This document shows, piece by piece, positions 5,753-53,169 of a DNA stretch of 64,000 bases (its first letter is position 1; every line of letters begins with the position of its first letter). The notes beneath the pieces are model-generated. The model saw nothing but the letters and a program-made list of their open reading frames with translations. It was not told the DNA's origin and did no database searches. The DNA is from Octopus vulgaris (lineage: Eukaryota): the NCBI GenBank assembly GCA_951406725.2, contig OX597830.1, positions 71,858,001 through 71,922,000 on the forward strand, read 5' to 3'. The position numbers were made by a program, and so were the translations under genes.

Positions 5753-5819
5753 TGTAATACTCACACACACACACACACACACACACACATTAACGCAGGT
5801 GTAAATCAAATATTTTTAC

Positions 5820-5901
5820 TTTCGACACATGTTTCGAAAATTCCACTGATACTATTCAAAAGAATAAATGGTATACACAATGCAATCTTCTCTTCCGGAA
5901 A
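5820..5901 (-). ncRNA. Type I hammerhead ribozyme-like motif (core variant CGGAAGA), long stem II
   Basis: Minus strand: TTTC-CGGAAGA-[55-nt hairpin GAAGATTGCATTG...CAGTGGAATTTTC]-GAAAC-ATGT-GTC|GAAA; stem I TTTC/GAAA; paralog at 19153-19237. Confidence 0.65.
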
Positions 5902-7879
5902 TTTTATTAATTGTTAACATGGTAAAAATACACTCATCTATTTATAATATATATATATATATATATATATATATATATATATATATATATATATATCAAA
6001 GTAGTTTTGGAGACAGAACCACCCTTAACTCAATCAATATTGAATGATATTATACACGACCGATCCATAATATATATTACTTATGATACTATAACTATTC
6101 AGAATCCCATACTTTCCATTTTCAAGACAACACGTGTTTTATGACAGCATGTCGGAATTTTTGAGATATAAGGTCTCTAGTTTCAATACTCAATTAGATC
6201 GACGTACTCCCAATCTTCAGGTCTGGATTCTACACATTTGTACAAATGTACGTTAAATTGTACAAATAGATCCCTCTTCCAATACAAAATGAGGGATTAC
6301 TATTGGCTTAAATGCGCACACGTACATCTCAACGAAGATAGCGTAAACTTACAACGTTTTAAAACAAGAATATTTGCTATGCTAAGAACACCTTCACAAA
6401 TTCGGACTCTCCGAAAAGAGTCTCATTGAAATCAATCTCCTCTCTTTACTCTCTCGCTAAACAACCAATTTTCTATTTAGTAAAAGAAAAAAAAGGAGCA
6501 GAAAATGTATTCACCTGTTCCATGATTCTCTTCAAATCTGTAATTAATTTCTGTCGGAAAAAATGCATCGTTTCATAAAACATTTAAATTTATATATTTC
6601 GGTTACGTCATGCCGACGATTTCTAAAAGGATTGAAATAGTGCTATATATATGATTATAACTGATTAGAAAAAGAAAAAAAAACGATAAAAAACAGAGAA
6701 GAAAATGAAAATAAATTAAAAGTTAGAAATATACACTCTTTGTATGTCCTTCTTCCTTCTTCCTTAGTTTCAAAAACTTTTAATCCTGTCAAATATCTTG
6801 AAGAAATAGCTTCTTCACACGAACTATCCCCCTTAGGGGACTTTATAAACACACACACGTGCACACACAGTCACACACACACACACACACAAACACAAAC
6901 ACACACTCACACACGCACACACACACACACACACACACACAAACACACACGCATACACACACACACACACACACTCACACACACAGACATATATATATAA
7001 TCTAGACACGCCTTTTTAGAAATATCAGCAATGACTTCTTCACTGGTGATGATTTTCCTGTATATTGCAAAAATACAACTTTTTCCCTCCACCGCAAATA
7101 AATTGTCCTTCATATTTGATGCTTCGATGAATCTATAGTATGTTATTCAGGCATGCAACTAAGAGACCCATGCATCTTATAACAGAAACAGGTGTATGCT
7201 AACGAAATTCATATACATAATCATTGTTTTACCTGTATATATATATATATATATATATATATATATATATATATACATAATGCGAAAATGATAGATATAT
7301 CATGTTTATGTCTCTTTTGATATAAGTCAACTATGCTTGACAATGAAGCAATTAACAAGGATAACTAAATTTAATTATTTTCTGCCTTGTTAATAAATAT
7401 TCCGACCGTGTATGCTTCATTAATATCACGAACATTTCAACTTTGAGTGTTTGTGTCTGTGGTTCACATGTACCTGTGTGTGTGTGTGTGTGTGTGCTTG
7501 TGTGTGTGTAAAAGGAAATAAGACAATTCTATCTTTGTGCGTTGCATTCAAATGAATACTGCAGTCAACCGTTGAATGTTTATATTTCGCCATTACAGTG
7601 CAATTGTCACTTTCCGTATAGGCGTGAAGAAAGTTGGTACTAGATAATTAATTCCAGCTCTATTATTATTACTACTACTACTACTACTACTACTACTACT
7701 ACTACTACTACTACTACTACTACTACTACTAATTTTCCCACTTTTTCCATTTCTTGCCGAATGTCCTCCCGATACCTAGGACAAATTCACACATTCTGTG
7801 TACGTTGATTAGCCATTAGAATAAACACTAGGATCTTCATTTATATAAATCAATAGAGATAAGTACAAAAACTATATTT

Positions 7880-8540
7880 ACAAAGATGGCAATCGTTATC
7901 ACAAAAAAAATATTGCTCTTCTGCATACAGGTAACGTACCAATTAAAACAATATTTTGTACTTTTTGCTGGGACGGCATGCCAGGAGTCATTCTCAAATA
8001 ATTTACAGTTCCTTTTTCATCATTCCTAGTTCTTCTACAATCGCTGGTAGTGTACCTGCCTTGAGATGTCATATTTTTTCGATTGCAATGAACATATCTT
8101 TATATATTCTGAACTTGCCAAATTCTTTTGCTGAAATATTATGATCACAGGGATTTCTAAGATCGGTAAATAAAGACTTCATTATTTTGGTCTTTTACTA
8201 CAATATCCGGTATATTAGCTTTGATGGTTCTGTGTGTATATACGGTAAGGCTCCAAAGAATCGTTACATTTTTCCTTCACTTATTGCCTCGGGGTGATGC
8301 TTATACACTTGTCAACAGCTTTGATTTTATAATGCTGACATATTTACCAGTGTAGGTATTGGCTAACTATTTCATGTCTTCAGTTATACTCTACTGATGC
8401 TAAAATATATCATCCAGAAATTAAGTCGTCAGTGTTTCGATGTCATTGCAGAATCAGCACTTTAGTCCTGCTCCATTTTTCATCACATTGGCTGGGTTGT
8501 TCCGTGCTAATAATGTATGTGATCTTCCAGCTACGCATAA
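7880..8540 (-). mobile_element. R4/Dong-type (RLE) LINE relic
   Basis: Degenerate CCHC...RH...YLHW and RLE-like segments on the minus strand, similar to the ORF at 13750-14570. Confidence 0.55.
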
Positions 8541-8615
8541 GTTGCATTTCTTAGATCCGTTAACATAGGACGGGTCATTCGGAGTATTCTTTCCTCAGTC
8601 GAGTTCCAGATTATC

Positions 8616-8893
8616 TTTGCAATTTCGGATGGTTATACTCGAGATTGCTTCAATCTGACCAGTCCCAAGGAAAAATAAGCTAAGAGCACTAGATTCTTTG
8701 GAAGAATATATATATATATATATAAATATATATATATATATTTGTATTTGTGTACCATTTCTCCGTTTTTCTCCGTCCTTGTTTTGATATACATTCGTTG
8801 CTTTCTTCCAAAGAATCTAGTGCTCTTAGCTTATTTTTCCTTGGGACTGGTCAGATTGAAGCAATCTCGAGTATAACCATCCGAAATTGCAAA
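8616..8893. repeat. Perfect 91-bp inverted repeat around a (TA)n-containing spacer
   Basis: 8616-8706 is the exact reverse complement of 8803-8893. Confidence 0.95.
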
Positions 8894-9243
8894 TATATAT
8901 GTGTGTGTGTGTGTGTGTGTATGTGTGTGTGTGTGTCTGTCTGTCTGTCTGTATGTATGTATATACACACACACTGTGCACCTGTTCAGGCAACGTCGAT
9001 TTCATGGAGGAAGTGAAGTAATGTACGGCACATACATTGAAATGATTTGTGCAAGTCGCTCGGCATGAGCTCAACCCTCATACGTCGTCTTCGGCAAGAG
9101 AATCCATTGTCTCTCTCTCTCTTTTTCTGTCTGTCTGTCTGTCTCTCTCTCTGTATATATATATATACATACCGATCTATCATAGCGAATGATAGATCGG
9201 TAGCCACTACACACAATTCTTTTCTCTCCTTGTTTCTTTCTGT

Positions 9244-9285
9244 GTCCCTTTCTGTGGAAGAGCGTAGGCTCGAAACGTTAAAGAC
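9244..9285 (+). ncRNA. Minimal hammerhead-like motif (Penelope-type) in a ~200-bp element between (TA)n tracts
   Basis: CTTT-CTGTGGA-A-GAGC gtag GCTC-GAAAC-GTT|AAAG; core differs from CUGANGA at A6; element starts with a 14-bp hairpin at 9170-9202. Confidence 0.55.
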
Positions 9286-50760: not shown

Positions 50761-50949
50761 CTGTAACACATACGGGCGCACATGGACAATGCAGACACAT
50801 ACACACGCGAACACACACCCACACACACACACACATGAACACAGACATACTCACAGACCATCACGCACACACACACACATATACACAGAAACACACACAC
50901 AAAAATTGCATAATTTCACGTACATACACACCTGCACGTATGGATACGC

Positions 50950-51341
50950 TTTACTCTTTACTCTTTTACTTGTTTCAGTCATTTGACTGCGGCCATGCTG
51001 GAGCACCGCCTTTAGTCGAGCAACTCGATCCCAGGATTTATTCTTTTGTAAGCCCAGTACTTATTCTATCGGTGTCTTTTGCCGAAACGCTAAGTAACGG
51101 AGACATAAACACACTAGCATCGGTTGTCAAGCAATGCTAGGGGGACAAACACAGACACACAAACACACACACATACATATATACGACGGGCTTCTTTCAG
51201 TTTCCGTCTACCAAATCCACTCACAAGGCTTTGGTCGGCCCGGGGCTATAGTAGAAGACACTTGCCCAAGGTGCCATGCAATGGGACTGAACGCAAAACC
51301 ATGTGGTTGGTATACAAGCAACTTACCACACAGCCACTCCT
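50950..51341 (-). mobile_element. SINE group B
   Basis: Reverse complement of 42733-43148. Confidence 0.88.
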
Positions 51342-52592
51342 CCACCTATAGATATATGTGTGCATGTATGTGTGTGTGTACGGTGTGTATAAATGTATAC
51401 ATGTATACACACTCACATACACAAACAAAAAAGTGAGCACACACACACTATATATATATATAGGATAACATTTTCAAAAAAATTTTATCACTGTCCAGTA
51501 TATTCAAAAATACCTTTTAAGGCGAAAATTATAAACAACTTATAAATAAGGGCAAATAATTTATCACTATAGTGATGAATTATATGTGGTTATTGACGAT
51601 TTAAAGTCTATTCTCGGCATATTTGGCATAGAAATATATATTTCTTTTGCCATTATTTAAAAGGTATATATATATATATATATATATATATATATATATA
51701 CATACATACATACATACACACACACACACACACACACACACACACACAAACACACACATATATATATATATATATACATACATATACACACGCACACACA
51801 TACATATATATACATACATACATACACACACACACACACACACACATATATATATATACATACATATATACATACACACACACATACACACATATATATA
51901 TGTAGACAAATACAGAGAGAGTAGAGAGAGAGAAGGAGTGACAGACAGACAGATCGATCGATCGATATATATATATATATGTATATATATATATATATAT
52001 ATATATATATATATATATATATATATATAGATAGATAGATAGATAGATAGATAGATAGATAGATAGATAGATAGATAGATAGATAGATAGATGGACAGAT
52101 ATTTGTTGCTAATAAGTTTCGAAGGAAAGAGTACTCAATAACTTGATAGAGATTAATGAGAAATTATTGAAGGAGAGTCAGTCACTCCTTTCACTAGGTT
52201 TAACCTGTTTTCACACAGAATTCTCAGCATAGTTTGGCTCTACTAAGATAATTCATAGGTATGTATGTATGTATGTATGTATGTATGTATGTATGTATGT
52301 ATGTATGTATGTATGTATGTATGTATGTGTATGTATGTATGTATGTATGTATGCGTGTGTGTATGCATGTATGTATATGTGTATATATATATATGTGTGT
52401 GTGTGTATGTATGTATGTATGTTTGTATGTATATATGTATGTGTGTATATATGTGTGTGTGTATGTATGTATGTGTGTGTGTATGTTTGCATGTATGTAT
52501 GTGTCTATGTATCTATGTGTATGTATGTATGTATACTAACGCAAATCTGTCAACATGTTGACTGAATTATATATAAAACTATAGCTTTATTA

Positions 52593-52698
52593 AGTTCGTT
52601 CAGAGTTGCCTCTCTTAGGTACATCGCATTGATAAGAGTCAAATAACTCGAAACATCGATGTCTGAGATTCCCGAGGGATGGCGACCCTGAATGAACT
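52593..52698 (+). ncRNA. Type I hammerhead motif with long extended stem I (core TTGATAA)
   Basis: ATCGCA-TTGATAA-GAGT caaata ACTC-GAAAC-ATCGAT-GTC|TGAGAT, enclosed by AGTTCGTTCAGAGTTGCC / GGCGACCCTGAATGAACT (17/18 paired including G-U). Confidence 0.72.
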
Positions 52699-53051
52699 AG
52701 GTGTTTTCACACCTTTTTACCATAAGGGAGATTTTTCTCCAAGGTAACTGGCGTGTGCCTGCCTTTAGCAGTTGAAATATGTGAGAAGCCTATTTCAAGT
52801 GACCTAAATTCATATATATACACACACACACGCACACACACACACGCACGCACACACACACACACACACACACACACACACACACACACACACACACACA
52901 CATATATATATATATATATATATTATATTGAGGGTACTACTATTCGTAGATACCATACGCTAAGAGGGACCAATGCGGTCAAAACTACTAAAATAAACAA
53001 AATTTTACCGAATGCAAAACTTCAAAGCAAATCATTTAAAAAAAGAATTTA

Positions 53052-53115
53052 GTTACATATCACCTGTGATTTCGCAATTAATGCAGAATATGCATTCTAT
53101 GTTCATCAGTGCAAC
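53052..53115 (-). ncRNA. Type I hammerhead ribozyme motif, intact CTGATGA core
   Basis: GTTGCA-CTGATGA-ACA..AATGCA tattc TGCATT..TGC-GAAA-TCAC ag GTGAT-A|TGTAAC; stems I and III fully paired. Confidence 0.78.
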
Positions 53116-53169
53116 AAACTCAAGATATATAAGAAAAAACATAACGTTACAAGCTCGATAGCCAACCCT

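Follow-up and report, generated by a model that had tools for sequence, protein, structure and literature searches.

A 64,000-nt stretch of the Octopus vulgaris genome (contig OX597830.1, positions 71,858,001 to 71,922,000, forward strand), referred to as the window and numbered from its first nucleotide, contains seven type I hammerhead ribozyme motifs that lie in short islands next to TA or CA microsatellite tracts. These islands are very probably truncated, solo, or internally deleted hammerhead-bearing 3' ends (pieces of pseudo-long terminal repeats, pLTRs) of about six families of Penelope-like elements (PLEs), at least one of them from the Hydra clade. The families are lettered A to F, with two copies of family A (A1 and A2), and we infer that families B to F are PLE ends. 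The window is a dense new example of known PLE-end hammerheads and not a new mechanism.

Type I hammerheads were scored on both strands of the window using a score that was devised post hoc and is optimistic. Six sites scored ≥21, compared to a mean of 0.26 and a maximum of 3 in 777 shuffles that kept local dinucleotides and microsatellites. Ten sites scored ≥19 compared to 1.0 per shuffle, and 26 sites scored ≥15. The seven accepted sites rank in the order C, F, D, A1, E, B, and A2. They are listed by position and followed by three weaker sites.
5820-5901, minus strand: A1 hammerhead; helix I of 4 bp, U4 changed to G, 55-nt rod-like helix II (21 bp predicted), G10.1-C11.1, near-palindromic helix III, GUC.
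9248-9283, plus strand: B hammerhead, minimal; helix I of 4 bp, A6 changed to U, a bulged A, helix II of 4 bp, helix III a 2-nt palindrome.
19154-19236, minus strand: A2 hammerhead, damaged at a join; U4 altered and the 5' strand of helix I replaced, 56-nt rod-like helix II, palindromic helix III.
39314-39388, plus strand: C hammerhead, intact and with the best score; CUGAAGA, G10.1-C11.1, 46-nt rod-like helix II (17 bp), palindromic helix III, GUC.
47541-47664, minus strand: D hammerhead; helix I of 7 bp, core intact, 91-nt domain II rod offset about 6 nt from GAAA, palindromic helix III.
52623-52669, plus strand: E hammerhead; U3-A8 core variant, helix II of 4 bp with G10.1-C11.1, 8-nt palindromic helix III, one mismatch in helix I.
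53052-53115, minus strand: F hammerhead; helix I of 6 bp, CUGAUGA, base of helix II mismatched, helix III of 4 bp (a Hydra-like size), AUA site.
6165-6222, minus strand: relic G; CUGAAGA and GAAA in the Hydra-type U...U layout, helices I and II unpaired, fold unconfirmed.
9629-9650, plus strand: half core CUGAUAA that runs into (TA)n.
21260-21297, minus strand: hammerhead relic I (site I); Hydra-type layout, (TA)n lies 55 nt downstream, helix I cannot be recovered.

An earlier sequence-only reading of the window had listed six main hammerheads, and all six were recovered as type I hammerhead-like folds above the shuffle rate, which was put forward as a check and is far exceeded. One of its positions, 52593, is 30 nt early (the motif starts at 52623), and the seventh site, 39314, had been overlooked. 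The high density it described is upheld at seven accepted motifs, or one per 9 kb. So is the estimate of about five unrelated families: a single one of the 36 island pairs, 5820/19153, shows clear alignment (z 32), and the others reach z ≤3.7. The three decayed or truncated hammerheads it added each score below 15; they are stemless core words (6165-6222), a half core (9629-9650), and a relic (21260-21297), respectively.

A strict hammerhead descriptor, likewise composed with the sites known, matches two of the seven motifs, C (39319) and E (52629). The shuffle mean was 0.019, and two matches were reached in none of 2005 shuffles. The Rfam model Hammerhead_1 (RF00163) matches C at 39313-39389 with 30.3 bits and an E value of 6.7e-6, which is below the gathering score of 34. 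Rfam searches of single islands gave no hammerhead match for B, E, or F, and a whole-window Rfam search, which returned mostly microsatellite matches, has no hammerhead among the 150 listed of its 289 matches. It is extremely unlikely that the folds are chance matches in AT-rich DNA. Such a reading can point to descriptors composed after the sites were known, to a folding z-score that is significant in only one of the seven motifs (C, z -2.99), and to the recognition by Rfam of only one of the four islands tested. It is contradicted by both shuffle tests, by the independent Rfam match to C, and by other copies of family A, in which precisely those core and pair positions that are damaged in the window copy are restored. 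The chance reading is already largely refuted for A, C, and E.

Other candidate folds were set aside or fall outside the scored set. The fold at 30855-30896, within a long interspersed nuclear element (LINE) reading frame, was judged a chance fold. So was the fold at 34519-34648, with a weak helix II whose pairing is lost in a second copy at 12688, and the fold at 16787-16921 was judged a chance fold. A possible hammerhead relic at 62481-62542 (plus strand), not among the scored sites, has a core that is one base short, a palindromic helix III, and a 4-bp helix I, and it lies about 40 nt before a CA tract. At 38478-38463 (minus strand), a U3-A8 core word and GAAA stand 5 nt apart without helices, about 45 nt before (TG)n and about 185 nt past an endonuclease remnant at 38663.

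The CUGANGA/GAAA core is intact in C, D, and F, takes the U3-A8 form in E, is restored in other copies of family A, and is changed at A6 in B. Five of the seven copies carry defects: U4 is altered at 5820 and 19154, A6 is altered at 9248, and the base of helix II is broken at 47541 and 53052. Canonical helix sizes are the exception, and only B and E have a 4-bp helix II. Domain II is 13-14 nt long in B and E and 29 nt in F, and it extends to 46 nt in C, 55-56 nt in A, and 91 nt in D. The long domains II of A, C, and D fold as rods with 17-26 predicted pairs, and this predicted long rod-like helix II (46-91 nt) is the sole unusual trait of these hammerheads. The G10.1-C11.1 pair is present in four of the seven (A1, B, C, and E) and absent from D and F; in A2 it is G-U, with G-C in most of the family depth. 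Most third helices had been called tiny and palindromic, and helix III is indeed a perfect palindrome in A2, B, C, D, and E, nearly so in one motif, and a 4-bp hairpin in one. The monomer hairpins of helix III are unstable (+0.4 to +2.4 kcal/mol), and B cannot form one. The two-copy duplexes are stable (-1.7 to -12.9) and are favored over the hairpin in all seven motifs. The palindromic helix III thus suggests that most motifs should cleave only as dimers in a tandem precursor RNA, so lone copies are probably inert and decaying.

The islands that carry the seven motifs are as follows.
5790-5942, minus strand: island A1, family A copy 1; between (TA)n and (CA)n, without the last ~20 nt of the A2 3' end, 81% identical to 19125-19292.
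9160-9369, plus strand: island B; ends at (TA)32, 5' edge approximate.
19109-19290, minus strand: island A2, family A copy 2; (TA)n on both sides, 5' terminal piece 19232-19290 joined to a hammerhead 3' piece 19109-19231.
39314-39530, plus strand: island C; begins at helix I, joined to a 3'-truncated repeat resembling a short interspersed nuclear element (SINE), ends at (TA)n.
47403-47838, minus strand: island D; between (TA)n and (CA)n/(TA)n, 3' terminal motif in common with family A.
52536-52812, plus strand: island E; 3' end at a TA/CA tract at about 52811-52925.
52925-53164, minus strand: island F; 3' end at the tract of E from the opposite side, 5' side joined to a SINE-like repeat.

The claimed association with TA repeats stands, with a TA/CA tract 30-142 nt beyond helix I, downstream in the orientation of the motif itself, at all seven accepted motifs. 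Among the ten sites that score ≥19, a TA, CA, or TG tract lies within 175 nt downstream in seven (background 0.238, P 0.003), and a TA-only tract lies within this distance in five (background 0.174, P 0.019). The three sites without a downstream tract are the three judged chance folds. Tracts are found on both sides, no more than 185 nt from the cleavage site, in five of the seven islands, and the SINE-like repeats at the 5' joins of C and F belong to the same family. The islands had been described as non-coding; this holds for the seven good motifs, which have no coding sequence beside them, but fails at 21260, where a remnant of a Penelope endonuclease lies about 220 nt upstream. It is improbable that the motifs are real PLE relics without targeting, next to which the TA tracts grew later from AT-rich insertion ends. 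Microsatellites do saturate the window, which has 169 tandem-repeat rows and 191 dinucleotide tracts along with many SINE-like copies and LINE fragments; other repeats adjoin tracts too, and the tracts beside A1 and D are CA rather than TA. Against later growth, the tract closely follows the 3' end at all seven accepted sites, the 3' ends of E and F face each other across a single tract, and 26 of the 27 published Hydra families have a documented (TA)n preference (PMC8557442).

Two features of the island ends were observed in addition. The 5' edge of the hammerhead piece is no more than about 5 nt from the core in three of the seven islands (5901 in A1, 19232 in A2, and 39314 in C), a pattern suggestive of stalling or template switching at helix I during copying. 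Family A (19109-19135) and D (47403-47436), both on the minus strand, have a common pyrimidine-rich 3' terminal motif and the same helix III. The motif occurs nowhere else in the window and is a candidate start signal for reverse transcription.

The window also contains remnants of PLE coding sequence. A profile of 65 homologues was searched against the window, and the best E value in the reversed-window control was 0.55.
21513-21762, minus strand: broken C terminus of a Hydra-clade PLE endonuclease (CxxC-E..N..Cx), with stops and one frameshift; 5' side cut by a SINE-like repeat at 21821-22087.
8490-8570, minus strand: remnant of a PLE GIY-YIG endonuclease C terminus (CxxC), E 2e-05.
38663-38755, minus strand: weak remnant of a PLE endonuclease end, E 0.0074, about 240 nt upstream of (TG)n.

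The order at site I is the end of the frame at 21513, about 220 nt, the hammerhead relic, 55 nt, and (TA)n, all on the same strand. The remnant keeps CxxC, E, and N, and the final H is changed. The segment 21762-21631 has 65 relatives at E ≤0.001, and CxxC..E is present in 64 of them. The longest relative, P0056, has a reverse transcriptase ahead of the matching endonuclease. Its cluster-mate P0068 has 64 full-length relatives of 601-777 amino acids, in which DKT/DKS is found in 61, DKG in none, RWK/RWR in 49 (RWK in 29), CxCx5C in 35, and CxxC..E in 61. A CxxC within GIY-YIG was found in none of 56 full-length relatives. These motifs are the Hydra diagnosis of Craig et al. 2021. The window remnant lacks the protein regions for RWK, DKT, and CxCx5C, and the relatives reached through P0056 and P0068 support the placement of site I in the Hydra clade. 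A Neptune/Nematis assignment was dropped in favor of Hydra after the profile search, the published clade motifs, and the motif counts of the relatives. Pfam returned nothing for the endonuclease remnant or for three frames upstream of relic G, and in 13 relatives it detected GIY-YIG only below threshold, in one. A word-index protein search with the endonuclease remnant also gave nothing. Judged from its sequence, site I is the 3' end of an ordinary coding Hydra-clade element. The Penelope origin proposed in the sequence-only reading is thus supported by the coding remnant upstream of 21260, the two further endonuclease remnants, and the downstream-tract geometry.

The window agrees with published PLEs in several respects. 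Craig et al. 2021 (PMC8557442) describe 27 Hydra families, and Hydra-1_Obim of Octopus bimaculoides has a (TA)n preference and a hammerhead at 2403 of 2507 bp, about 100 nt from the end. The distance from helix I to the 3' terminus, computed from the tables of that paper, is 25-148 nt in 22 of the 27 families. Five were omitted: Penelope-13_HM and -18_HM, which carry an additional or 5' motif, -3_NV and -3_ADi, which have no entry there, and -2_NV, whose distance of about 350 nt exceeds this range. The relatives of site I share with the Hydra clade a C-terminal GIY-YIG with CxxC/CxH and no CCHH. The distance of the hammerheads from the 3' end, the (TA)n 55 nt past relic I, the U...U layout around helix II in relics G and I, and the 4-bp helix III of F are also shared. 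Cervera and de la Pena 2014 (PMC4209133) found thousands of mostly single minimal hammerheads per genome in heterogeneous families and regarded them as probably truncated PLEs. Those motifs resemble the ones in the window in being type I, dispersed, and drawn from many unrelated families, in the dimer-requiring palindromic helix III and G10.1-C11.1, in the U3-A8 variant (site E; reported there for Schistosoma PLEs), and in a bulged base after A9 (site B). They differ in helix II, which is 6-8 bp there compared to up to 17-26 predicted bp here, and no cephalopod is mentioned in the passages compared. Loops of about 30-35 nt in two Selaginella PLE motifs are a partial precedent for the long helix II (PMC8557442). 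Poseidon PAc of Anolis (Frangieh et al. 2024, PMC11167929) matches the window in a 3' end about 90 nt past the cleavage site, an optional tail, AT-rich targets, and a hammerhead that is copied intact. In PAc, helix II includes the start codon and the reading frame is intact, features not established for the window islands. Cleavage of PAc is protein-assisted and dispensable for insertion in vitro (PMC11167929).

A mechanism of target-primed reverse transcription by PLE proteins can be proposed from these comparisons. The PLE GIY-YIG endonuclease would nick a (TA)n tract, as the AT-rich nicking of PAc (PMC11167929) and the (TA)n surveys (PMC8557442) suggest. Reverse transcriptase would start at a fixed internal site about 30-150 nt downstream of the hammerhead, for which there is in vitro precedent in another PLE and a matching geometry here, and a second start site further on would give an optional tail like that seen in family A. 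Uncleaved RNA would be copied through the ribozyme so that the motif would land intact. Copying might then stop early or reach a fixed 5' end, or the copy might later lose its middle, and each event would leave a stump of 150-450 bp with a tract on one or both sides. Such stumps are seen in I, A1, and A2, and B to F would have formed in the same way.

Family A was followed beyond the window. Four public runs, three of them DNA-like and one (X2) presumably RNA, were aligned to A2 at 80% likeness and yielded 491, 272, 430, and 11 family A contigs. In the three DNA-like runs, the core is restored in the loose ends at 19227-19233 as CUGAAGA or CUGAGGA, with the expected variation at N7, and helix I is longer. 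At 19170, the letter that prevails in the runs restores G10.1-C11.1. Absence of the core from family consensus sequences had been named as grounds for abandoning the hammerhead claim; the copies of family A do carry it. The join in A2 is private, as judged from loose ends on both sides of 19232. A1 and A2 have a common 5' terminus, and the point at which it meets the hammerhead piece differs between them. The summed depth of this 5' terminus is 126,000, 40,000, and 205,000, compared to 312,000, 44,000, and 441,000 for the hammerhead, where summed depth is not copy number and compares parts of one stretch only. Several contigs continue from the 5' terminus into TA, CA, or CT repeats, and one contig links both ends of family A across the hammerhead (19125 to 19234). 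The private joins, the abundant 5' piece, and the linking contig indicate that A1 and A2 are deleted forms of a longer two-ended unit. Past the usual 3' end, all four runs have one common unique tail of up to 35 nt (1-3 contigs each), whose sequence is not found elsewhere in the window. No go-back joint for family A is listed in the four runs, and contigs cannot show its absence. The motifs of families A and B had no matches in metagenome, prokaryote, and viral contigs. The idea that the 5' end of family A is an inverted pLTR was rejected; it bears no resemblance to the 3' end of the family.

These data bear on whether at least some of the families, and A in particular, are genuinely non-autonomous, as short RNAs derived from master copies of their own, with two fixed ends, that are mobilized in trans by PLE protein. 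This would refine the interpretation of the islands as PLE ends, and we consider it possible without favoring it. The shared 5' terminus with different joins, its abundance next to microsatellites, the linking contig, and the tracts that flank five of the seven islands on both sides are as expected for such elements, and non-autonomous elements that form pLTRs are known for Chlamys. The same fixed-ended solo unit could, however, arise by internal priming on an autonomous transcript that starts in the pLTR, no listed contig spans the stretch between the two ends of family A, and at site I the motif clearly marks the end of a coding element. The description of all these islands as non-autonomous PLE derivatives may apply to family A, which looks like a short two-ended unit at microsatellites, but is not supported for every site, since site I is a plain 3' end of a coding Hydra-clade element. 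A bolder proposal, which we hold to be rather unlikely, is that family A and its relative D are a very abundant, never-tandem, SINE-like parasite of TA-targeting PLEs, hidden from standard searches by a 50-90-nt rod-like helix II. The fold might then serve mainly as a reverse transcriptase handle, and an intron in family C that starts in helix II might switch between ribozyme and message.

Island C was found in other data. Its words occur in 20 of the 24 listed runs, 14 of which have at least half of the words, and the runs come from 9 studies with 4 organism labels. Family C is therefore probably multi-copy. There is no RNA run among those listed. Island C also contains splice-signal-like words at 39335-39530 (plus strand): GTGAGT at 39342, within helix II, resembles a donor, CTAAT at 39389 a branch point, and AG at 39436 an acceptor. 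Removal of this candidate 95-nt intron (39342-39436) would delete GAAA and the cleavage site and join the ATG at 39335 to a 33-codon frame that ends at the TA tract. The chance of an open run of this length is about 0.12.

An origin of the islands as scattered monomers of non-LTR retrozymes, which multiply via circular RNA with rolling-circle cleavage and ligation, is highly improbable. These elements (PMC7229834; 10.64898/2026.07.22.740005) are similar in being short non-coding units with a type I hammerhead, in their kinship to PLE pLTRs, and in having monomer copies. The 150-450-bp units, low G+C, type I hammerheads, and dimer-type helix III of the islands fit the size class, vertebrates commonly contain monomers derived from retrozyme families, and an intact internal hammerhead is expected from a circular template. 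Retrozymes are, however, defined by tandem units, each with a hammerhead, and by circular RNA, whereas the islands are not in tandem within the window by self-comparison, and the longest period is 36 among the 150 listed of 169 tandem-repeat rows. None of them is thus a retrozyme as defined, and the retrozyme comparison in the sequence-only reading fails on this arrangement. The ends of the islands adjoin microsatellites, a coding remnant precedes site I, and the long helix II of A, C, and D would be ill-suited to the canonical loop 1-loop 2 geometry.

Several results weigh against the assignment of the islands to PLE ends. Only the weakest relic, at 21260, is tied to a PLE reading frame, and the profile search detected coding sequence beside none of the seven good hammerheads. 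The full Hydra-clade element is absent from the window, and the published hammerhead of Hydra-1_Obim has no real match in it. Hydra motifs have a helix II of 3-7 bp and a helix III mostly with a 1-3-nt loop (PMC8557442), which differs from the long domains II of A, C, and D and the loopless palindromic helix III of five of the seven motifs; families A2, B, C, D, and E may thus belong to other clades. The second fixed end of family A is abundant and is not predicted by random 5' truncation. The far end of its tail is beyond the contig ends, so a tail length of 30-40 bp is not established. The TA-only enrichment is modest given the 191 dinucleotide tracts in the window.

The density of hammerheads is expected from the PLE content of the genome. 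PLEs make up 6.83% of the O. vulgaris assembly, or about 4 kb per window of this size, in 190 families, and 'unknown' repeats make up 15%. If the window is typical, one hammerhead per 9 kb extrapolates from this one window to the order of 10^5 motifs in an assumed genome size of 2-3 Gb, far above the 4,000-9,000 minimal hammerheads of coelacanth and Xenopus (PMC4209133) and near the 120,000 hammerheads of axolotl. Most motifs of this kind would escape Rfam on account of their long helix II. On the same premise, the motifs would help to classify the 'unknown' repeats of the assembly and would provide a large natural alignment for asking whether selection maintains the catalytic core of short copies, a point relevant to the role of PLE hammerheads. 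The view of the islands as a poorly catalogued system is not sustained; dispersed hammerheads from truncated PLEs were described in 2014 (PMC4209133), and an Octopus (TA)n PLE with a 3' hammerhead was listed in 2021 (PMC8557442). Families A to F may already be in the O. vulgaris repeat library, Repbase, or Dfam. The word 'hammerhead' occurs 0 times in the text or supplement of the O. vulgaris repeat paper, and we found no survey of octopus hammerheads or of long-helix-II PLE hammerheads, and no report of the long helix II in cephalopods, in the open-licence literature.

Other repeats in the window include near-perfect long inverted repeats (83-99%) at 8612-8705/8804-8897, 20619-20777/20925-21083, 44321-44434/44522-44635, and 63013-63269. 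They resemble miniature inverted-repeat transposable elements or fold-back insertions, some with TA tracts between or beside the arms, and there is a hairpin at 9433-9590. A 464-bp element is present at 12606-13069 and 34437-34900 (94% identical) with flanking (AAT)n tracts. LINE fragments are found at 13047-14266 and 16086-16742, which are related pieces among (AAT)n that we take to be R4/Dong-like, and at 30260-31290, which is presumably RTE-like and has a reverse transcriptase in two frames. The named matches in the LINE protein search are from coral, shrimp, and sea cucumber (52-55%). A Tc1/mariner transposase-like fragment was recognized by eye at 40349-40696 (minus strand). The segment 28737-29292 consists of A and T runs with repeated KKF/ENF-like words in both directions and has a composition unlike its surroundings.

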